Part shown: in pieces, positions 2,655 to 56,070 of the stretch
Numbering within the stretch: the first letter of the stretch is position 1
Layout: each line of letters opens with the position of its first letter
Assembly (NCBI GenBank): GCA_017505745.1
Contig: JAFVOP010000031.1
Location: 50,712-114,711, forward strand
Length of the DNA: 64,000 nt
Source of the DNA: Clostridia bacterium
Lineage (GTDB): Bacteria > Bacillota > Clostridia > Oscillospirales > CAG-272
Direction of reading: 5' to 3'
Position numbers and translations under genes: made by a program
The notes under the pieces: model-generated
What the model saw: the letters and a program-made list of their open reading frames with translations, nothing else
Told to the model about the DNA's origin: nothing
Database searches by the model: none

Positions 2655-3791
2655 TTAGCGGGTCACGGATTCGTCATTGGCCTCCACTGCCAGACGGATG
2701 ATGTCGAGCGAGGCGTTGGGCTTTGCGCAGGCGTCCTGGCTCTCCCGCATGGCGCGGCGGAGCTGGGTATCGCCGGCTAAGCGAAGCCCGTTTTCGATCT
2801 GCTCGCGCTGTGATTTGGCGGGCAGAGAAAGTCCTTTTTCACGGAAGAAATTGAAATTGTAGGTCTCGCATCCGGGGATGGGAGCGGTGTGCACCGTGGG
2901 TGTTTTGCAAACGAGCGCCTCGGTGGAGGTGAGCCCTCCGGGCTTGGTGTAGAGAACGTCACACGCCGCCATGTACGTGGGGATCTCGGTGGTAAACCCG
3001 AGGATGTGCGCGCGGGAATTCCCTTCAAAGTGCTTTTCCAATGCATTGCGCAGGGTATCGTTTTTGCCGCAGATCACAATCAGCTCGGCATCCTTTCCCA
3101 TCGCTTGCTCAAGCTCCTTGGTAAAGGACTGCATATGTCCCGCTCCCATGCTTCCTCCCATGATCAGGTGGATCTTATGGTTGGGATGCAGTTGGAGCGT
3201 GGCGCGTGCCTCCTCCTTGGAGGGAAGATCCAGGAAGCGCAGGCTGACCGGAATGCCGCACGGACGGAGCTTTTCCTTTGGCAGGCCGCGCTTGAGGTAT
3301 TGCTCCTCCATCTCATCGTGCGCCAGGATAAAGTATTTACAGGTGGTCTCCTCCCAAAAGGGGTAGCAGGTATAGTCGGTGGCCACGGCGATCGAGGGCG
3401 GCATGGGGTGCCCCCGGCGTTCCAGGTACGCCACGGCCAGAACCGGGAAAACGTGGGTGGAAAGAATGGCGTCAAAGTGCTCGGCCTGCAAAAGCTCCAA
3501 TAGCTGAGGCGCAACCTTGGAGCAAACCCAGTATACCGGGGAATGCCCACCGTGCAAATGCTTGCTGATCCAAACGCCAAAGTTATATACGAAGCCGAAC
3601 AAATGCGGTGTGTGCTTTGCCATGCGGATGTAGGAGGTGTTGAGCTGATCGCTCACCTTTTTACTGGCAAGCCCGAAGAAATCAACGATGCGGCCGCGGT
3701 GTCCTTCCTTTTCAATTCGTTCCAAAAGAGCCTTTGCCGCGGCGTTGTGACCTTCGCCCGCGGTACAGGAAAGAATCAAAATGTTTTTCAT
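2655..3791 (-). CDS. MGDG-synthase family (GT28) diacylglycerol glycosyltransferase
   Basis: Start moved to ATG 3791 (SD AAAGGGAGAAAGG upstream). N-terminus MKNILILSCTAGEGHNAAAKAL and C-terminal ...LYTKPGGLTSTEAL match the UgtP/MGDG-synthase family. Confidence 0.7.
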   Translation of the reverse strand: MKNILILSCTAGEGHNAAAKALLERIEKEGHRGRIVDFFGLASKKVSDQLNTSYIRMAKHTPHLFGFVYNFGVWISKHLHGGHSPVYWVCSKVAPQLLELLQAEHFDAILSTHVFPVLAVAYLERRGHPMPPSIAVATDYTCYPFWEETTCKYFILAHDEMEEQYLKRGLPKEKLRPCGIPVSLRFLDLPSKEEARATLQLHPNHKIHLIMGGSMGAGHMQSFTKELEQAMGKDAELIVICGKNDTLRNALEKHFEGNSRAHILGFTTEIPTYMAACDVLYTKPGGLTSTEALVCKTPTVHTAPIPGCETYNFNFFREKGLSLPAKSQREQIENGLRLAGDTQLRRAMRESQDACAKPNASLDIIRLAVEANDESVTR

Positions 3792-3822: not shown

Positions 3823-3848
3823 TTTGCATCGATTGGAATCGATGCAAA
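3823..3848 (-). promoter_or_regulatory. Perfect 12-bp inverted repeat in the 5' leader of the GT28 gene (operator or leader hairpin)
   Basis: TTTGCATCGATT-GG-AATCGATGCAAA, located between the promoter at 3875-3903 and the SD/ATG at 3791. Confidence 0.4.
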
Positions 3849-3874
3849 CAGAGGAGGCATCATAAAACAGATAT

Positions 3875-3903
3875 ATTGTACCACAAACCTTGCGATTTGT
3901 CAA
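3875..3903 (-). promoter_or_regulatory. Sigma-A type promoter for the GT28 gene
   Basis: Minus strand reads TTGACA, a 17-nt spacer, then TACAAT. Confidence 0.55.
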
Positions 3904-3970
3904 CTTCTCGAAAAAGAATAGCGGCAACTGCGCCCAAGGGACGGCAATCACCGCTATTTTTTTGCGCAAA

Positions 3971-20382: not shown

Positions 20383-20411
20383 TTGACAAACCGCTTTTGC
20401 CATGGTATAAT
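20383..20411 (+). promoter_or_regulatory. Consensus sigma-A promoter for the tRNA pair
   Basis: TTGACA, a 17-nt spacer, then TATAAT, 42 nt upstream of tRNA-Thr. Confidence 0.65.
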
Positions 20412-20453: not shown

Positions 20454-20528
20454 GCTGGTGTGGCTCAATGGCAGAGCAGCTGATTTGTAATCAGCAGGTT
20501 GATGGTTCGACTCCGTTCACCAGCTCCA
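20454..20528 (+). tRNA. tRNA-Thr (anticodon UGU), CCA encoded
   Basis: Manual cloverleaf. Acceptor GCTGGTG/CACCAGC, D arm GCTC-AATGGCA-GAGC, anticodon arm GCTGA-TTTGTAA-TCAGC, T loop TTCGACT, 3' TCCA. Confidence 0.8.
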
Positions 20529-20561: not shown

Positions 20562-20647
20562 GGGAGATTTCCCGAGTGGCCAAAGGGGGCAGACTGTAAA
20601 TCTGTTGCGTCTTCGCTTCGGTGGTCCGAATCCACCATCTCCCACCA
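20562..20647 (+). tRNA. tRNA-Tyr (anticodon GUA), long variable arm, CCA encoded
   Basis: Acceptor GGGAGAT/ATCTCCC, anticodon loop CTGTAAA, long variable arm TGCGTCTTCGCTTCGGT, T arm GGTCCGAATCCACC, 3' ACCA. Confidence 0.85.
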
Positions 20648-20653
20648 GAAAAA

Positions 20654-20691
20654 AGCACACATTTGTCTACCAAGACAATGTGTGCTTTTTT
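20654..20691 (+). terminator. Intrinsic terminator after the tRNA pair
   Basis: AGCACACATTTGTC-taccaa-GACAATGTGTGCT followed by TTTTT. Confidence 0.85.
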
Positions 20692-20700
20692 CAACGAAAT

Positions 20701-20870
20701 TCGCCTTTGGCGAGTGATATATGGCTTTGCCATGTGAAATAGCTTCGCTGTGAAATATTTGCTACGCAAATGTGATGGGCGAATTTCATTTCACATTGCG
20801 ACGAAGGAGCAATATTTCACAATTTACGAAGTAAATTATTTCACATTCGGCGCCAGCCGAATATTTCACT
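20701..20870. repeat. Dyad-symmetric array: 4x GTGA(A/T)AT on the + strand, then 4x ATTTCAC, interleaved with mini-hairpins
   Basis: Octamers start at 20714, 20734, 20750, 20772. Complements end at 20794, 20820, 20844, 20869. Hairpins include TCGCC-ttt-GGCGA, GGC-ttt-GCC, AGC-ttc-GCT, TGC-tac-GCA, ATTTA-cgaag-TAAAT, TCGG-cgccag-CCGA. Confidence 0.8.
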
Positions 20871-20978
20871 TGAAAAGCTATCTAAAGTATGATATAATAA
20901 TAGTAGAAAGGCGGTGTTACTATAACTGATTCAAAGCCCCGCGACCTATCCACAGACTTTGCGGTTAAAGTTATAAAA

Positions 20979-21278
20979 ATGTGCGACGGTATCAAAGGAC
21001 ATTATTCTCCTGTAAACCAATTAGAGCGCTCCTCTACATCTATTGGCGCCAATATTCACGAAGCAAATTATGCTCATAGCAAAGCCGACTTTATTGCAAA
21101 GTTTCAAATTGCACTGAAGGAATGTTACGAAACTGAATACTGGCTTGAATTATTCGTGAAATCCGAATTGTTGGGTAGAGAGATTGCAAAAGATTTGTAT
21201 AATCAATGTGGCACGATTCGTAGAATGCTGATCGCTTCTATCAACACCGCAAAGGAGAACAGTGATGTCAAAAAGTAG
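20979..21278 (+). CDS. Four-helix-bundle protein (family often annotated as 23S rRNA intervening-sequence protein), start uncertain
   Basis: ...QLERSSTSIGANIHEANYAHSKADFIAKFQIALKECYETEYWLELF. In-frame upstream codons (from 20907) still look homologous but carry no ATG/GTG/TTG, so the N-terminus may be truncated. Confidence 0.65.
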   Translation: MCDGIKGHYSPVNQLERSSTSIGANIHEANYAHSKADFIAKFQIALKECYETEYWLELFVKSELLGREIAKDLYNQCGTIRRMLIASINTAKENSDVKK

Positions 21279-21681
21279 AGAATATATGTCTCATCATCCT
21301 GAAAATCCACCCGAATGGTATTGGATAAACGGACTTCACGATGCGGGCATTGTAGGTGTTGAATCGTTTGAATTTCCGTTTGATTATAACAAATTTATCG
21401 GAGAAAAAAGCAAATACAATCGAAATCTCTTGGTGTTAAAAATAAACGCAAAAGGCGCACTTTACGACACCTCCGTGGAAGAAATCCGCCTTTACAACTA
21501 CAAGATTTTAACACCAGACATATCTCTCGAAGGCAGGAAAACAATTTGGTGGTTGGCAGATATGCTGAGTGAACAAGATGACTATTACATCTTGGAGATA
21601 GCTTTACAAGATTTTGATTCATTCCCCGAAGATTTCACCTTTAAGATCAAATTTGATCGAGCAGAAGTCAAAAGAAAATGA
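21265..21681 (+). CDS. Hypothetical protein (138 aa)
   Basis: ATG 21265 with AAGGAG SD 7 nt upstream. Overlaps the previous gene by 14 nt. No recognisable motif. Confidence 0.5.
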   Translation: MSKSREYMSHHPENPPEWYWINGLHDAGIVGVESFEFPFDYNKFIGEKSKYNRNLLVLKINAKGALYDTSVEEIRLYNYKILTPDISLEGRKTIWWLADMLSEQDDYYILEIALQDFDSFPEDFTFKIKFDRAEVKRK

Positions 21682-21845: not shown

Positions 21846-23129
21846 TTAAAGAATATAATCCGAGATGCAATCGTACCAATGCACGTAGGTTTCGCCGTTC
21901 ACGGTCAGTCGCTCGTTGTCGGGGAGCAGCTCGGTCCACGGCTTTCCATAGCGGTGACGCGCCCAATCGTTGTGATTGAATCTGCGCCAAAGCACCGTTC
22001 TGCCGTTTTTGTCGAGATATTGCTCCGAGACTACGCCGTCGTTAAAGCACTGGATGTCCATGACGCAGACCGTGTCATAGACTTTCCCGCCAATGGTGAC
22101 GGTGTAACGCCCCACGATATCCACGGTTTCCTTGCTCGTATGTCCTTGCACCACCGATCCCTCGCGTCGGAGCAAGCCCTTCGGGGAGAGATTTACTTCG
22201 TTTCCGCAGTTGTCCTCTCCAAAGCCCCAGTTTTGAAGAAACTCGTCGCCGTCGAGAAAGGTGTATAGCTTGCGAATGCCGTTCTCTACGTGGCTTTCCG
22301 CAAGATAGCGGCAGTGCGTGTCGGTCAGCTGCGCCACAAAACGGCGTTCCATCCGATCCACCATGCCCGTGCGGTAATAGTCCTCCACTCCGTATTGGAT
22401 TGCTTCGATCTCCACGCCCTCTATGCCGTGGATCTGCGCTTTCCCAACCACCTTCAAATCGGTATACTCCGTGCGCTTTCTGGAGGGCGCTTCATACAGT
22501 CCCCAGCTCAGCCGCTCGCCCAAACGGGGGATCAATAGCCAGCCCTGCAGCTCCTCCCATTTCACGGAGAAGGGCGGGAGCGGGGAAGGCTCGATTTGAT
22601 ATGCGGGTATCTTTTCGGGTAATTTGCTCATTTGGATATCTCCTTTCAATGATGGCGGATACGGATAATGTTGTCTGAATTTTTCTTTTGCATAGTGTAG
22701 GCGGCTTTTCACGGTTCCCAGCGGAAGTGACAGCCGCGTTGCAATCGCTTCTTGCGACAGATTTTTGAAGAAGTATAGGTACAGGATCTGCTTTTCTTTG
22801 TTGCCAAGCAATTCCAAAGTATCGCGTACGACGCTTTGCTCGGAGACACCGAGCCTTCCTGTGCTCAGGGCGGATTCGGAGAGTGCATCCAAGGAAATCT
22901 GCATCCGTTTGGCTTTTTCGCGGAAATAATCGTTGCATTTGTTGCTTGCAATGCGCAGAAGCCACGCCTTAAAGGCGGACGGATTTTGCAGACTCTCAAA
23001 TTTTAATGCCGCCGTCAGACAGACCTCTTGAATGATATCGTCGGCATCGAATTTGTGGGATACTTTATATCGAACAAAGCGTTGCAGGACGGTAAAATGT
23101 TCTTTTAAAAGCTCTTCAAATTCATTCAC
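21846..23129 (-). CDS. ECF-type sigma-70 family factor fused to a ~260-aa C-terminal domain of unknown function
   Basis: Region 2 (DDIIQEVCLTAALKF...FKAWLLRIASNKCNDYFR) and region 4 (LYFFKNLSQEAIATRLSLPLGTVKSRLHYAKEKF) occupy aa 1-165. They are followed by a soluble extension with no TM segment. Confidence 0.75.
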   Translation of the reverse strand: MNEFEELLKEHFTVLQRFVRYKVSHKFDADDIIQEVCLTAALKFESLQNPSAFKAWLLRIASNKCNDYFREKAKRMQISLDALSESALSTGRLGVSEQSVVRDTLELLGNKEKQILYLYFFKNLSQEAIATRLSLPLGTVKSRLHYAKEKFRQHYPYPPSLKGDIQMSKLPEKIPAYQIEPSPLPPFSVKWEELQGWLLIPRLGERLSWGLYEAPSRKRTEYTDLKVVGKAQIHGIEGVEIEAIQYGVEDYYRTGMVDRMERRFVAQLTDTHCRYLAESHVENGIRKLYTFLDGDEFLQNWGFGEDNCGNEVNLSPKGLLRREGSVVQGHTSKETVDIVGRYTVTIGGKVYDTVCVMDIQCFNDGVVSEQYLDKNGRTVLWRRFNHNDWARHRYGKPWTELLPDNERLTVNGETYVHWYDCISDYIL

Positions 23130-53747: not shown

Positions 53748-54251
53748 TCATATTCCGTAACGTATTGCCTTCCATTCGTTCCAAAAGGCAATATAACCGT
53801 TTCGATCAAATTCATCTTCGGGTAATTTTTTATCTGCAGCGGCATTATAAAATGCTTCTACTTGGTCTGCAAAAGCAAAGACGGTTGTTTTATATTCATC
53901 AAATAATATTTCCGTTCTTTCTCCTGCTTCTGTAACTAAAACAACATTGCCGTTTTCGTGCAAAACCGACCAATCAACTCCGTTAGGGCAACCGCAAATA
54001 TCAACTTTTGAAAGTTCTTCATTTGCTATCATAAAAAAGCCACAGCAAGGAAGCATTTGATTACTCTCATATATTTTATGATCTTCCTTCAAGGATTTCA
54101 GCAAATACAATGCGGTAGAACTGACTGTTGCGTCATCATATTCCAAAACTTCATGTCCTATGATCGCTTTTGCATTTCCGTGAAGACACAGATCCTCGAT
54201 GGGATCTACCCCTTCCATCCAATGAAGATTGGATACACTGATAGAAAACAT
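53748..54251 (-). CDS. Hypothetical cytoplasmic protein (167 aa) in a low-GC pocket
   Basis: ATG 54251 with GGAGG SD 6 nt upstream. No motif recognised. Confidence 0.5.
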   Translation of the reverse strand: MFSISVSNLHWMEGVDPIEDLCLHGNAKAIIGHEVLEYDDATVSSTALYLLKSLKEDHKIYESNQMLPCCGFFMIANEELSKVDICGCPNGVDWSVLHENGNVVLVTEAGERTEILFDEYKTTVFAFADQVEAFYNAAADKKLPEDEFDRNGYIAFWNEWKAIRYGI

Positions 54252-54371
54252 ATGTAACCTCCGTTATCGCCAGTTTCGCCTTTGTATTACAAAGGCATAG
54301 GGCAAAGCCCATACCCCTACAATACCGAATATATTATATCATAGATTAGCAGAGAAAGCAAGAGTTATATT

Positions 54372-54540
54372 CCGACTCCGTCGGAGTAATATTATACGGC
54401 TCCGCCGTGTAGTGATATTGTTCGGCTTCGCCTCACAGTGATATTTTATTCGCCCCTTTAACTTGCGAAGCAAATATCACTCGGTGCAAGCCGAATACCA
54501 CTGCGTACACAATGCAATTGTGCGCAATAGAACTCACCCA
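54372..54540. repeat. Second dyad-symmetric octamer/mini-hairpin array (same family as 20701-20870)
   Basis: GTAATATT (54386), GTGATATT (54412) and GTGATATT (54438) at exact 26-bp phasing, then AATATCAC (ends 54480) and AATACCAC (ends 54501). Hairpins CCGAC-tcc-GTCGG, ACGGC-tcc-GCCGT, GGC-ttc-GCC, TTGC-gaa-GCAA, TCGG-tgcaag-CCGA. Confidence 0.8.
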
Positions 54541-54598
54541 AGGCGAATAAAACTGCCCAACCTCCTTATGAGAAGTTGGGCAAGCCCCGCTTTTTTAC

Positions 54599-55089
54599 AA
54601 TGTCATTCAGTTAAGGAATCATGAAAGGCTCTCCCACCGGGAGAGCTGGCGCCGTAGGGCGACTGAGAGGGGATTTTATTCCTATAAACTTCGTTAGCGT
54701 AAAACAGGATGCTTTCCATATCAAAATTAACTTCATAGAGCATTTAGTGGTCGAAGGCTTCTCTACGCGAAGCCGCCCTAAATGCTAGCGGGAGCATCGC
54801 GGACATCGCGGCCATATTGTTTAGAGCAAACATCATTTGCCGCTATGTGCAATTTGAGCGTTGCTCAAATTGAGAACCGAAGCGAAACGCGCACGAAAGC
54901 AGCCAATTTCGCAATAAAAATGTGTGTAAAGTTCTTGAAAGGGGTCTGGGGGAAACTTCTTACAAGAAGTTTCCTCCAGAAAACATTACGTTAAGGAAGC
55001 CTTTGCTTCCAAAGCCCTCTCCGTCACGCTGTCGCGTGCCACCTCCCCCAAAGTGGGAGGCTTCGTTTTTGTTCACTGAATGACGTTGC
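54599..55089 (+). mobile_element. MITE-like non-coding insertion (~490 bp) with terminal inverted repeats and a 10-bp direct-repeat flank
   Basis: Left end AATGTCATTCAGTTAA (54599-54614). Right end TTCACTGAATGACGTT (55072-55087), matching 14/16 as an inverted repeat. Exact GCTTTTTTAC at 54589-54598 and 55090-55099. No ORF inside. Confidence 0.6.
54834..54977 (+). repeat. Copy C of the ~145-bp structured intergenic element (inside the MITE-like insertion)
   Basis: Core CATTTGCCGCTATGTGCAATTTGAGCGTTGCTCAAATTGAGAACCGAAGCGAAACGCGC. Terminal hairpin at 54948-54977. Confidence 0.85.
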
Positions 55090-55206
55090 GCTTTTTTACC
55101 GCCCGCAAATAAAAAACGCCTGCGCTCTTGACATTTCTCCCCGATGTGTGATATGATTATGGAAGGGAACGGTTGCAACCGGCAAAGCAAAGGAGAGGAT
55201 GGGACG

Positions 55207-56070
55207 ATGCTGACAAACGAATCGGTAACGGCTTGGATCACCGACCGCATGAGCCGCTATGAATATAACAATCTGAAGGAGCTGGAGGGCTTTGCCTTTG
55301 ATGCGCCGCTGGTGGGCTTCAGCCGCGGAGACGATCCGCTCTACGCCTTTTACAAGGAGCATATCGATCCGCACTTTTATCGGCTTCCGCAGGAGTGGCT
55401 CGAAGCGGTGTTGGGCGGGAGCTATGACCCGTCGGGGATCAGCGTGATCAGTTGGGTGCTTCCGCAGACCGTGGATACGAAGGAAAAAAGCCGCAAGTGT
55501 GTGGATTGTCCGCCGCTGGAATGGCAGATGTCCCGCGTGCACGGAGAGGAATGCAACCGCGCCTTGGCGGAGGCGTTGGTGGCGCATTTGACCGCGCAGG
55601 GGATCCCCTCGGTGGCACCCATGCTCTCCGAGCAGTTTTCCTGGGGCGAGAGCGAGGTTCACGGAAAGATCTCCAATTGGTCCGAGCGGCATACGGCGTA
55701 TATCTCGGGACTGGGTACCTTTGGGCTTTGCGACGGCCTGATCTCCGAAAAGGGCAAGGCCGCACGCTACGGCTCGGTGATCGTCTACGCGCCGCTGACG
55801 GCTACCGTGCGTAAGTATTCGACCTACAACGAATACTGCATGGCAAAAAACGGCTGCACCGCCTGCATTCGTCGATGCCCCGCAGGAGCCATTACAAAGG
55901 ACGGGCACGACAAAGCCAAGTGTGTTGCTTACCATCGGGACGCCATCAAGTCGATCTGCCACGAGCGGTACGGCTATGACGGCTATTCGGTTTGCGGACT
56001 CTGCCAAACGGGTGTGCCGTGTGAGAGCGGGATCCCGACATGGGAGCCGAGGGAACAGACCGCGGAATGA
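55207..56070 (+). CDS. 4Fe-4S dicluster protein (epoxyqueuosine-reductase / reductive-dehalogenase-like)
   Basis: ATG 55207 with AAGGAGAG SD. Cys clusters CTACIRRCPAGAI and CGLCQTGVPC. Confidence 0.5.
   Translation: MLTNESVTAWITDRMSRYEYNNLKELEGFAFDAPLVGFSRGDDPLYAFYKEHIDPHFYRLPQEWLEAVLGGSYDPSGISVISWVLPQTVDTKEKSRKCVDCPPLEWQMSRVHGEECNRALAEALVAHLTAQGIPSVAPMLSEQFSWGESEVHGKISNWSERHTAYISGLGTFGLCDGLISEKGKAARYGSVIVYAPLTATVRKYSTYNEYCMAKNGCTACIRRCPAGAITKDGHDKAKCVAYHRDAIKSICHERYGYDGYSVCGLCQTGVPCESGIPTWEPREQTAE

Follow-up and report, generated by a model that had tools for sequence, protein, structure and literature searches.

Inverted pairs of the Gut-1 motif behind tRNA genes and ahead of variable cassettes in gut Clostridia

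Introduction

Gut-1 was published as a single motif resembling a small RNA (sRNA), present in the 'human gut only' and described without organism, context or function, and covariation led its discoverers to class it as 'certainly RNA' (Weinberg et al. 2010, PMC2864571). The corresponding Rfam family, RF01706, carries the type 'Gene; sRNA'. For Gut-1, RF01706 and the function of PF05635, our literature search returned only the 2010 discovery paper and general reviews of diversity-generating retroelements (DGRs). To our knowledge, no catalytic activity is known for PF05635, the 23S rRNA IVS protein family; Avd is a nucleic-acid-binding accessory of a reverse transcriptase.

Here we analyze a window of 64,000 nucleotides from a Clostridia bacterium (Oscillospirales, CAG-272; contig JAFVOP010000031.1, positions 50,712 to 114,711), in which a repeat array follows a tRNA operon. 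As a motif, this array is not new: both of its halves are copies of the Rfam family Gut-1. The likeness comprises a full-length model match above the gathering score, covarying hairpins separated by GUGAAAU and a source in gut Firmicutes. Unlike the published motif, Gut-1 is here one half of an obligate inverted pair, located behind tRNA genes and before PF05635-led cassettes. With the 23S rRNA IVS and the Avd of DGRs, the locus shares a gene of the PF05635 four-helix-bundle family, placed in a stable-RNA transcription unit beside a long inverted repeat. However, the PF05635 gene lies here downstream of the repeat with its own promoter rather than in a stem excised from rRNA, and neither a reverse transcriptase nor a template or variable repeat is found nearby. 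The complete architecture, running from the tRNA CCA end through a terminator, array B, an inverted array A, a promoter and a PF05635 gene to variable cargo, appears to be undescribed so far.

Results

The tRNA operon has a perfect promoter (TTGACA-17-TATAAT, 20383-20411; promoter scan) and comprises, on the + strand, tRNA-Thr(UGU) as its first gene (20454..20528; ARAGORN and Rfam tRNA) and tRNA-Tyr(GUA) (20562..20647; ARAGORN), whose CCA end is encoded. A unit of about 230 bp starts at the base directly after this CCA with a hairpin, hp0 (20648..20692), detected by inverted-repeat search and locus comparison. Its arms of 16 nt are 100% complementary (GAAAAAAGC...GCTTTTTTC), with an A6 run on one side and a T6 run on the other. 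The GC-containing stem, upstream A-run and downstream T-run of hp0 are those of an intrinsic bidirectional terminator; a simple terminator scan restricted to loops of 3-8 nt omitted it, its exact arms being 13 nt apart. Homologues of hp0 accompany the unit in other genomes, as seen by locus comparison. Array B begins directly at the T-run of hp0, and the placement of the array immediately after the tRNA-Tyr terminator, made in a sequence-only reading of this DNA, is therefore correct.

The repeat element spans 20692-20871 and consists of two inverted Gut-1 copies. Array B (20692..20778, +), recognized by RF01706 and by a single-module model, is co-oriented with the tRNA and matches Gut-1 with 66.8 bits at 20692-20761 (+), against a gathering score of 50. 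Array A (20783..20871, -), the inverted Gut-1-like copy, reaches 57.2 bits at 20783-20871 (-) against the same gathering score of 50, and its matches to the single-module model score 48.6 and 30.5 bits. Three hairpins separated by GUGAAAU, with compensatory changes, form the Gut-1 layout, and the window array has the same layout. In order, array B reads CAACGAAAT, hairpin, GTGATAT, hairpin, GTGAAAT, hairpin, GTGAAAT, hairpin, GTGAT, while array A contains four - strand GTGAAAT heptamers and three hairpins, with GTGAAATGAAAT as its central end. The ends of the pair read TTTTCAAC/GAAAT and ATTTCAC/TTGAAAA, the slash marking the border.

Four octamers had been claimed on the + strand. Three of them stand, as GTGATAT at 20714 and GTGAAAT at 20734 and 20750, whereas the one at 20772 is only a degenerate GTGAT. 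The four complementary ATTTCAC copies, ending at 20794, 20820, 20844 and 20869, were confirmed in the sequence, and the mini-hairpins said to separate the repeats proved real by inverted-repeat analysis and by alignment to the Gut-1 model. Unit spacing is irregular, at 16-26 bp. The 180 bp of the array hold seven exact GTGAWAT/ATWTCAC heptamers. When the window was block-shuffled 1000 times with its composition preserved, the richest 180-bp span contained one or two heptamers in 969 of the shuffles and never more than four. Beyond the arrays, the window shows no enrichment of the heptamer, and a Chi-like hotspot was discarded on this ground. The reported GC transition was likewise borne out, with values of 0.58 at 19-20 kb and 0.42 at 21-22 kb, just downstream of the array.

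An inverted-repeat search also revealed a long-range repeat, with a 5' arm (AACGAAAT-TCGCC) at 20693..20705 and a distal arm (GGCGAATTTCATT) at 20778..20790, in the centre of the pair. The 5' arm has alternative partners, namely the local GGCGA of hairpin 1 or the distal arm. Across 80 pairs representing seven sequence classes, the three-way covariation of this repeat amounts to 6.24 of 7 Watson-Crick pairs, versus 4.14 after permutation. As a separate observation, the two arrays of the read-through strand can fold together as a long stem (z = -10.5).

An outward promoter (TTGAAA-17-TATAAT with a TG extension; 20870..20898, +; 11/12 matches in the promoter scan) abuts the last heptamer, and extended -10 elements occur at the equivalent position in the loci L157, L085 and L330. 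The PF05635 gene (20922..21278, +; Pfam E=3.8e-25), encoding a 23S rRNA IVS protein with a four-helix bundle, matches the 23S_rRNA_IVP profile with 88.6 bits versus a cut-off of 33.8, and is homologous to PDB 2RLD (E=2.3e-23), its closest solved relative, which consists of five chains. Its start codon is ATA in the window and ATG in L121, from the same species in another sample (tblastn, 97% identity). The stop of this gene is overlapped by a cargo ORF of 139 aa from the ORF list (21262..21681, +), which has no Pfam match and whose position is occupied by unrelated genes in other loci. An exact-protein look-up of the FkbM gene in the window found none on record.

A second array of the same family, also announced by the sequence-only reading, is present at 54362-54555 as a diverged pair of GTGATAT type, with the variants GTGATAT, GTGGTAT and ATATCAC; its halves score 29.7 and 34.5 bits, below the gathering score. 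Its array B (54469..54555, -; GTGATAT/GTGGTAT subtype) reaches 34.5 bits against the gathering score of 50 and is preceded by an hp0-like hairpin (CCCAAC...GTTGGG; 54556..54580, -). Array A (54362..54449, +; 29.7 bits, again below 50) is inverted relative to array B. As in the first pair, a long-range repeat (TTCGCC/GGCGAA) is visible at array B. An outward promoter (TTGCTT-17-TGaTATAAT; 54333..54361, -), read from the sequence, is followed by an ORF of 167 aa (53748-54251, -; ORF list) without a Pfam match. No further pairs of the GTGATAT type were found in the fetched loci.

The comparative material consists throughout of metagenome bins and contigs. In about 90 related loci, the order is tRNA-CCA, bidirectional terminator, array B, inverted array A, extended -10 promoter, PF05635 gene and variable cargo. 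In each of 19 other loci Gut-1 matches array B, always co-oriented with the upstream tRNA, and the orientation of the pair was convergent in 39 cases versus divergent in one. The 46 non-redundant tRNA-linked pairs lie behind 24 anticodon species and share the CCA/GAAAAA junction of the window: 45 of the 46 tRNAs have the CCA end, and in most pairs it is followed by GAAAA with 0-1 extra base. Internal pairs without a tRNA retain (G)CCA or short tRNA-Gly 3' fragments, and the pair is also found behind hairpins of protein-coding genes. Terminators directly after the CCA also occur at tRNA genes without a pair (L326 and L328); therefore, part of the 'precise junction' may be the ordinary end of a tRNA operon here. 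In Akkermansia bins, single-orientation arrays were found with neither a tRNA nor a partner array, which indicates that the module array can exist outside the tRNA/pair architecture.

The pair lies 25-58 bp before the start codon in 58 of 63 PF05635 relatives (92%; 74-96% identity, with enough upstream sequence), and a co-oriented tRNA is present as well in 41 of these 63. An adjoining PF05635 gene is absent from about 70% of the pairs found by motif alone. The genes after PF05635 are unrelated from locus to locus. In L135, tRNA-Trp is followed by two successive pair-PF05635-cargo blocks and then by pair-cargo; in L085 and L042, cargo is flanked by pairs. L158 contains four tandem empty units versus one in L164, a contig of the same species, and the homology of the two stops right after the last ATTTCAC, with one hairpin module swapped. 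All pairs of one locus have a uniform orientation, and direct recurrence between unrelated small genes is seen in L135, L085, L042, L158 and L187. One unit composed of hp0, the pair, PF05635 and a MazG-like cargo (91-98% identical) is located behind tRNA-Arg in L154, behind tRNA-Pro in L152 and L146, and behind non-tRNA DNA in L148; the similarity sets in immediately behind the CCA. At the orthologous tRNA-Thr/tRNA-Tyr locus the pair is kept in L124 and L330, with the neighbouring FkbM only 73-78% identical. Because it is retained there across species, the pair can persist stably over long periods. The ORFs read next to the pairs included no recombinase, transposase or reverse transcriptase, and no target-site duplication was visible at the flanks CCA/GAAAA (left) and TTTCAC/variable (right).

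Since aligning whole arrays with MAFFT gave no structurally consistent result, we built a model of the single module, which consists of an invariant GTGAAAT and a variable mini-hairpin of 5-8 bp. Over 112 distinct modules, each base of the heptamer (G, T, G, A, A, A, T) is invariant, stem cells are paired in 98.4% versus 62.5% when shuffled, both sides change in 7 of 9 stem pairs, and the covariation score is 0.80 versus 0.15 when shuffled. Between the window and the orthologous locus L330, three compensatory double substitutions were found. In an alignment fitted to the module model, which itself disfavours G-U, just 2 of about 770 variable stem cells are G-U pairs, and G.T is not commoner than A.C in the stems. 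The loops are polar, being TNC and TNNC on the GTGAAAT strand and GNA and GNNA, closed by C-G, on the other. A GNA or GNNA loop closed by C-G is a classic, very stable DNA mini-hairpin loop, and a near absence of G-U is atypical of structured RNAs. The near-absent G-U, the G.T/A.C balance and the loop types hint at a constraint at the DNA level, and the hairpin covariation, scarce G-U and polar loops fit DNA hairpins at least as well as RNA. The promoter scan of the window found no consensus promoter reading into either array. With no such promoter and almost no G-U, support for RNA as the active form is weak.

Discussion

As our best explanation, plausible though short of probable and drawn from sequence comparison, we propose that the array is a junction or recombination-site module of tRNA-linked cassettes in gut Clostridia, which would also insulate transcription. 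The unit of about 230 bp starts at the base after the tRNA CCA and consists of hp0, array B and the inverted array A. Each array is a run of oriented modules of heptamer plus mini-hairpin, with a covarying long-range inverted repeat enclosing array B; after array A come an extended -10 promoter, often a PF05635 gene, and then variable cargo. The unit may be recognized as a folded single-stranded nucleic acid, DNA being likelier than RNA, by a factor that reads heptamer plus hairpin, and could be the place where cassettes are added, lost and exchanged. In addition, hp0 and the arrays could act in both directions as a transcriptional barrier between the tRNA operon and the cassette promoter. The PF05635 protein, presumably a pentamer and a homologue of Avd, would be the sole linked candidate partner. 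Cassette exchange might also proceed by plain homologous recombination between resident copies instead of site-specific recombination.

In its most far-reaching form, which we consider doubtful, this proposal makes Gut-1 one half of the border element of a hitherto undescribed class of mobile cassettes in gut Clostridia, and not an sRNA gene. These cassettes would insert precisely after the CCA of practically any tRNA gene, stack there in direct arrays, be headed by an Avd-like PF05635 gene and move via ssDNA or RNA. The ssDNA route would involve attC-like movement with an unlinked recombinase. On the RNA route, a trans-acting reverse transcriptase could copy the tRNA 3' trailer and switch template onto the tRNA CCA end.

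Integron attC sites and cassette arrays resemble the pairs in having a conserved fold with variable sequence and short conserved boxes, as well as one orientation between small unrelated accessory genes, with empty or tandem sites. They differ in that the ends of the pairs, which were checked, lack the RYYYAAC/GTTRRRY boxes and any GTTRRRY core, and in that many mini-hairpins stand here in place of one bulged hairpin. Here each cassette carries a promoter of its own, often together with a PF05635 gene; tRNA 3' ends serve as the platform, at many loci per genome; and the neighbouring ORFs that were read included no integron integrase. REP/BIME elements (REPIN) with RAYT likewise combine short conserved tags with imperfect palindromes in many copies per genome, as inverted doublets in intergenic positions behind genes and terminators. 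However, the REP palindromes of a genome have a conserved sequence, while in the pairs conservation is confined to the 7-mer, each half has 3-5 modules, the linkage is to tRNA ends and PF05635, and no RAYT was identified. Integrative islands at tRNA genes share the tRNA 3' end, a variable cargo of low GC and, at internal borders, incomplete remnants of the tRNA 3' part; in contrast to them, the pairs involve 24 tRNA species, have their junction after and not within the tRNA, lack an integrase and form units of only 0.2-1.2 kb.

A pure transcriptional insulator would be a rather unlikely substitute for the proposed junction module. According to it, a bidirectional terminator or road-block made of hp0 and both arrays separates the highly expressed tRNA operon from the promoter that follows, and cassette variability is a side effect of a permissive, repeat-rich region. 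This agrees with the symmetric A6/T6 runs at hp0, the promoter directly after the pair and the pairs behind hairpins of protein-coding genes. Polymerase arriving from either side would meet the GNA/GNRA-capped hairpins of the distal array, each followed by U-rich AUAUUUCAC, one of which was flagged as terminator-like by the scan, and the long array-on-array stem of the read-through strand (z = -10.5) could be processed. Yet a terminator does not need an invariant 7-mer, many stems are AT-rich with short U tracts, and the three-way covariation of the long-range repeat, the tandem empty units and the near-obligate link with one PF05635 subfamily are left unexplained. That Gut-1 acts as a small non-coding RNA, such as a protein sponge with repeated GUGAAAU between hairpins, seems quite unlikely to us; array B would then derive from read-through of the tRNA or from its 3' trailer, and array A from antisense transcription. 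The curated family, rated 'certainly RNA' by its discoverers, the strong covariation, the oriented modules with polar loops, the single-orientation arrays in Akkermansia bins and a G.T versus A.C asymmetry of 19 to 6, favouring a fold of the tRNA-sense strand across both arrays, all speak for an RNA. Against it, neither array has a promoter in the window, array B starts on the T-run of a strong terminator, the obligate inverted partner (39 to 1) would have no obvious role, the variable stems are almost free of G-U, and the linkage is to genome positions (tRNA 3' ends and cassette borders) and not to a regulon.

Two further explanations are, in our view, very unlikely. The pair could be an operator or nucleoprotein platform, in which about ten heptamers, five per half, serve as dsDNA sites for the pentameric PF05635 protein or for a host regulator of the adjacent promoter. 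The presence of the pair at 25-58 bp ahead of the start codon in 92% of the PF05635 subfamily, a last heptamer that overlaps or abuts the -35 region, the five chains of PDB 2RLD and the roughly 5 + 5 heptamers per pair are in line with such a role, but about 70% of the motif-found pairs lack an adjoining PF05635 gene, the 16-26 bp heptamer spacing means no helical phasing, and dsDNA binding does not account for selection on hairpin pairing and loop polarity. Equally improbable is a non-autonomous miniature element (a MITE or REP/BIME doublet) that inserts at terminator hairpins or tRNA 3' ends by means of a trans-acting enzyme encoded elsewhere, with cassettes merely piling up beside it. Arrays that resemble terminal inverted repeats with several binding boxes, the many arrays at contig ends, suggestive of repeat-induced assembly breaks, the hairpin modules common to copies within one genome, the tandem units and the presence or absence of the pair at orthologous loci would suit it; the lack of a target-site duplication, the fact that the two arrays are not copies of each other, the hp0 and CCA remnant that accompany the unit and the vertical persistence of the pair at the tRNA-Tyr locus would not.

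Several other candidates were rejected. The statement that the array is not a CRISPR holds, with repeats of 7 nt in place of 23-55 nt, inverted arrays and self-complementary spacers. An iteron, plasmid-type origin or partition site, also suggested from the sequence alone, finds no support: where direct repeats of 17-22 bp in helical phase would be expected, the spacing is an irregular 16-26 bp, the halves are inverted, the spacers are covarying hairpins, and the neighbours are tRNA genes and PF05635, with no rep or par gene present. Compared with MITE or insertion-sequence ends, the arrays do have the inversion, but their flanks show no target-site duplication. As for a CRP/FNR or Rex operator, half-sites of the TGTGA and TTGTGAA kind do occur, yet they repeat directly at intervals of 16-26 bp, and the sole inverted TGTGA...TCACA pair has a 15-nt spacer. 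A type III toxin-antitoxin RNA does not fit modules that are not identical tandem repeats and lack a toxin gene. A phage origin was dropped after viral contigs yielded, apart from one convergent case (L219), little more than isolated chance matches. An orientation set by replication was also discarded: the first and second pairs are mutually inverted, yet the cumulative GC skew rises across both.

Returning to the junction module, the suggestion that the array is recombination-site-like is favoured by the CCA position at 24 tRNA species, the variable cassettes, the direct arrays and the occurrence of one unit behind different tRNAs. The accompanying idea of a scar of a tRNA-targeted element is abandoned, because heptamers and hairpin pairing alike are clearly constrained. 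The sequence-only interpretation as a whole is partly supported; it did not recognize that the two halves belong to a curated Rfam family, annotated as an RNA rather than a DNA-binding site.

These findings link Gut-1, an orphan in Rfam since 2010, and PF05635, a very widespread family of which Avd is the only understood member, to tRNA 3' ends and swappable cassettes, and provide both with a testable setting. We know of no classical integrons in Firmicutes. Should the pair prove to be a site of recombination or insertion, it would represent a cassette-capture system in Firmicutes and would explain the small variable islets beside tRNA genes in abundant gut Oscillospirales. Even as a mere insulator, the mirrored combination of an invariant 7-mer with hairpins of free sequence would be an unusual and compact design.

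Results

By every sequence and structure test, the array that follows tRNA-Tyr is a member of the Gut-1 motif (Rfam RF01706). Scanning the window against Rfam at curated thresholds returned three matches, one tRNA and two copies of Gut-1, located at 20692-20761 on the + strand (66.8 bits) and 20783-20871 on the - strand (57.2 bits), each composed of three hairpins with GUGAAAU between them. Both exceed the gathering score of 50, so the dyad-symmetric array described in the sequence-only reading consists of two convergent copies of a known motif. The motif was thus already catalogued, and the finding itself is real. Gut-1 was discovered as 43 examples, all from human-gut metagenomes and in no sequenced organism, and was rated 'certainly RNA', without a cis-regulatory role or a known function (PMC2864571). 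In the discovery alignment, the upstream flanks already contain a tRNA 3′ end with a terminator and the downstream flanks contain inverted copies, a point that the paper leaves without comment (PMC2864571). A search of the searchable library found no mention of Gut-1 in later papers. Within this literature, the obligate inverted pairing, the junction with the CCA end of many tRNAs, the link to the PF05635 protein family and the cassette arrays seem to be new.

The array (20692-20871) starts at the T-run of a perfect hairpin with 16-bp arms, directly 3′ of tRNA-Tyr (20562-20647). GTGATAT at 20714 and GTGAAAT at 20734 and 20750 lie on the + strand, followed by four copies of ATTTCAC (read on the + strand) ending at 20794, 20820, 20844 and 20869; the repeat copies proposed earlier were found at their positions, except that the fourth + strand copy, at 20772, is only a degenerate GTGAT. 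Seven exact heptamers within 180 bp are far beyond chance: 1000 block shuffles of the window gave no more than four per 180-bp span, and at most two in 969 of them. The heptamers are separated by short self-complementary stretches, where mini-hairpins had been described. The second array of related type is also present, as a diverged GTGATAT-type version at 54362-54555.

In the window, a promoter scan placed a strong promoter (TTGAAA-17-TGaTATAAT) against the inverted array, upstream of a PF05635 four-helix-bundle gene (20922-21278) that it is predicted to drive. The start codon of this gene (20922-20924) is ATA in the window, where the next in-frame ATG is at 20979; a second sample of this species (contig L121, position 9682) has ATG here, and the gene may be inactivated in the window, or ATA may be a sequencing or strain variant. 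Facing this cassette inside the low-GC islet, a - strand gene (21846-23129) encodes a protein of 427 aa whose first 150 residues contain sigma-70 regions 2 and 4 and whose C-terminal ~270 aa have no Pfam match.

Setting ~20, and later ~86, related pairs in one orientation yielded a common layout. The layout runs from the tRNA CCA through an A-run and a hairpin (hp0) to a T-run. Array B follows as CAACGAAAT-X-loop-X'-GTGAAAT-hairpin-GTGAAAT-hairpin-GTG.., then the centre of the pair, X'-ATTTCATTTCAC, and finally the inverted array A, with hairpin-ATTTCAC three to four times before unrelated flank; directly beyond the last ATTTCAC, loci are no longer alike. The word X, 6-7 nt long and of seven classes (for example TTCGCC in the window, AAATCC and TCGTTC), is complementary to two copies of X', the local one in hairpin 1 and a distal one at the centre. 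Its pairing reached 6.24 of 7 Watson-Crick matches vs 4.14 when permuted (maximum 4.63 in 2000 permutations), which indicates that array B is enclosed by a covarying 11-14-bp inverted repeat competing with hairpin 1.

The pair at 54362-54555 has the layout of the first on the opposite strand, closing with an extended -10 promoter and an ORF of 167 aa that has no match in Pfam. Two heptamer subtypes occur in one genome, GTGAAAT at 20692-20871 and GTGATAT/GTGGTAT here, and the discovery alignment of Gut-1 likewise contains the GTGAUAU subtype. Both pairs carry TTCGCC/GGCGAA as word X, and they share some of their hairpin modules. Upstream of this pair, in - strand reading, ~540 bp (54600-55140) extend to a Fer4_16-type gene (55144-56070), with no convincing ORF and no Rfam match at curated thresholds. 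The pair also lies near the right-hand side of a polysaccharide biosynthesis locus (29000-52600), a 40%-GC block within a 57%-GC genome, whose genes, all on the + strand, include a DegT aminotransferase, two UDP-sugar dehydrogenases, a Polysacc_synt_3 flippase, a cytidylyltransferase and NTP_transf_5; an HTH_38 gene on the - strand precedes it.

The comparisons rest throughout on metagenome bins and contigs. Scanning one genome per species for the pattern gave 120 loci, ~58 of them genuine hairpin arrays, nearly all from gut or rumen Clostridia (Oscillospiraceae, Ruminococcaceae, Acutalibacteraceae, Christensenellaceae, Faecousia), the group to which the uncultured organism of the window belongs. 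Arrays were convergent in 39 cases vs divergent in one. Directly 3′ of tRNA genes we found 46 non-redundant pairs, covering 24 anticodon species; the CCA end is present in 45 of these tRNAs and is followed in most cases by GAAAA, with 0-1 extra nucleotide between. Array B is co-oriented with the tRNA without exception, and the curated Rfam model matched it in 19/19 loci, array A reaching threshold in only 3/19. A metagenome search with the PF05635 protein gave 63 relatives, at 74-96% identity, for which 300 bp or more of upstream sequence was available; a pair ends 25-58 bp before the start codon in 58 of them, 41 of which have a co-oriented tRNA further upstream. In the reverse direction, a PF05635 gene adjoins only about a quarter of the pairs found through the motif.

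Terminators with an A-run from the first base after CCA also occur without a pair (L328 4334-4380, L326 4409-4445), and the precise junction may partly be a general feature of tRNA operon ends in this lineage. Bins labelled Akkermansia contain (A)GTGAAAT-plus-hairpin arrays with GC-rich stems in single orientation (L007 2314-3301, L107 3193-3445, L013 7007-7082, L084 3815-3894), sometimes repeating every 450-900 bp, without inverted partner or adjacent tRNA; either the module is used differently there, or the contigs were misbinned.

Genes after PF05635 are unrelated between loci and often overlap its stop codon; on inspection of the sequences, this cargo looks like MazG, NUDIX, histidine phosphatase, P-loop kinase, cytidine deaminase and ASCH proteins. 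One locus (L135) carries tRNA-Trp, then pair-PF05635-cargo twice, then pair-cargo; cargo is flanked by two pairs in L085 and L042, and two tandem pairs precede PF05635 in L187. Four tandem empty units occur in L158 vs one in the same-species contig L164, with identity lost directly behind the last ATTTCAC and a single hairpin module exchanged internally. Within any one locus, all pairs share orientation. A unit of hp0, pair, PF05635 and MazG-like gene, 91-98% identical across four contigs, sits after tRNA-Arg (L154), tRNA-Pro (L152, L146) and non-tRNA DNA (L148), with similarity beginning at the first base after CCA. Where internal copies have no tRNA, hp0 is often still preceded by (G)CCA or by short pieces of a tRNA-Gly 3′ end. 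A recurrent ~60-nt module, in which AAAATATCTTTTT comes after a T-arm-like GAGTTC(G/A)A.., is found immediately behind array A or immediately in front of an internal hp0 (L039 ~3600-3680; L056 ~200-330, - strand; L148 2680-2735; L156/L158 ~3840-3905); it may be a degenerated 3′ half of a tRNA, or else mark the end of the cassette.

The window, L121, L124 and L330 all have the pair at the orthologous FkbM / tRNA-Thr / tRNA-Tyr locus; only a remnant of PF05635 follows it in L124, and an acetyltransferase takes the place of PF05635 in L330. L326, from a related species, has no pair, and L328 is laid out differently. Behind tRNA-Tyr in L326 (4409-4470), the terminator is followed by part of the tRNA-Tyr 3′ end in inverted copy (TGGTGGGAGAT..GGATTCGGAC), and the contig end repeats this inverted stretch, which may be an assembly artefact. 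Unrelated to the pairs, an element in one strain (L153 3802-5450) is inserted at an A/T-rich site at the 3′ end of the cassette's kinase gene; on inspection of the sequence, its 422-aa and 67-aa ORFs look like a tyrosine integrase and an excisionase of the kind known from the Tn916 family.

The spacers between heptamers are structured: 49% of 567 distinct spacers contain at least five Watson-Crick pairs vs 5% when shuffled, with 222 different stem arms. A single-module covariance model found 223 modules in 95 sources. In the best of these, 112 distinct modules, pairing holds in 98.4% of stem cells vs 62.5% shuffled (0/500 shuffles reached this value), seven of nine pairs change on both sides (325 cells), and the covariation score is 0.80 vs 0.15 shuffled and at most 0.14 in slid controls. 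Together with three compensatory double substitutions between orthologous hairpins of the window and L330, this shows that hairpin pairing is under selection.

G-U occurs twice in ~770 variable stem cells, in an alignment fitted to a Watson-Crick seed; in a less biased spacer scan G.T was no commoner than A.C (12 vs 28). Loops are polar relative to the heptamer, the GTGAAAT strand carrying TNC triloops (TTC, TGC, TCC, TAC) and TNNC tetraloops, closed by C-G in 288/358 cases, and the opposite strand GNA and GNNA (GCAA, GTAA, GAAA and others). With their sheared G.A pair, C-GNA-G and GNRA-type loops are known as classic DNA mini-hairpins of very high stability; among RNA tetraloops, GNRA is a classic as well. 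G.T exceeds A.C by 4 to 1 in array B in sense orientation and by 15 to 5 in array A in antisense orientation, which favours folding of one continuous strand, from tRNA to PF05635, by 19 to 6; these numbers are small, and strand-biased deamination could give an equal outcome. Taken as one long strand, the two arrays can also base-pair with one another (minimum free energy -86.8 kcal/mol, z = -10.5).

Discussion

The unit is an oriented composite, internally mirrored, with the tRNA end as its left edge. It precedes a promoter and, in many cases, a PF05635 gene, recurs between variable genes, and is found as the same unit at different tRNAs. Our reading, tentative and held at somewhat less than even chance, has three parts. 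The unit would serve a cassette system as its junction or recognition site, where a putative factor would recognise heptamer plus hairpin in folded single-stranded nucleic acid; hp0 and the arrays would also separate tRNA transcription from cassette transcription; and the PF05635 protein, a homologue of the reverse-transcriptase accessory protein Avd, would be the first candidate partner because it is the only linked protein. PF05635 is pentameric in 2RLD. The main weaknesses of the cassette-junction reading are that no recombinase, transposase or reverse transcriptase was seen linked to the unit, that no target-site duplication was seen at it, and its long persistence at one locus; further ones are the pair-less terminators right after CCA and the single-orientation Akkermansia arrays. 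The unit resembles integron attC sites in its conserved fold, free sequence and position between cassettes, but is built differently and fails the attC box test.

The pair could instead be purely a bidirectional insulator, which we consider unlikely. That the arrays are genuine sRNAs, as the Rfam listing has it, is somewhat less likely still. The near-absence of G-U, the polar loops and the strand-following G.T asymmetry are unusual for an RNA family. The promoter scan of the window found no consensus promoter for either array, and array B starts at the T-run of a terminator. An operator for the adjacent promoter is improbable, and to the same degree so is a MITE- or REPIN-like repeat; REP/BIME doublets are alike in placement and inversion, but unlike in sequence conservation. 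The 23S rRNA intervening sequences share with the unit the combination of PF05635, inverted repeat and stable-RNA operon.

Taken together, the pairing, the CCA junction, the PF05635 link and the cassette arrays put the 'sRNA' label in question, and these links make two orphan families, Gut-1 and PF05635, testable.
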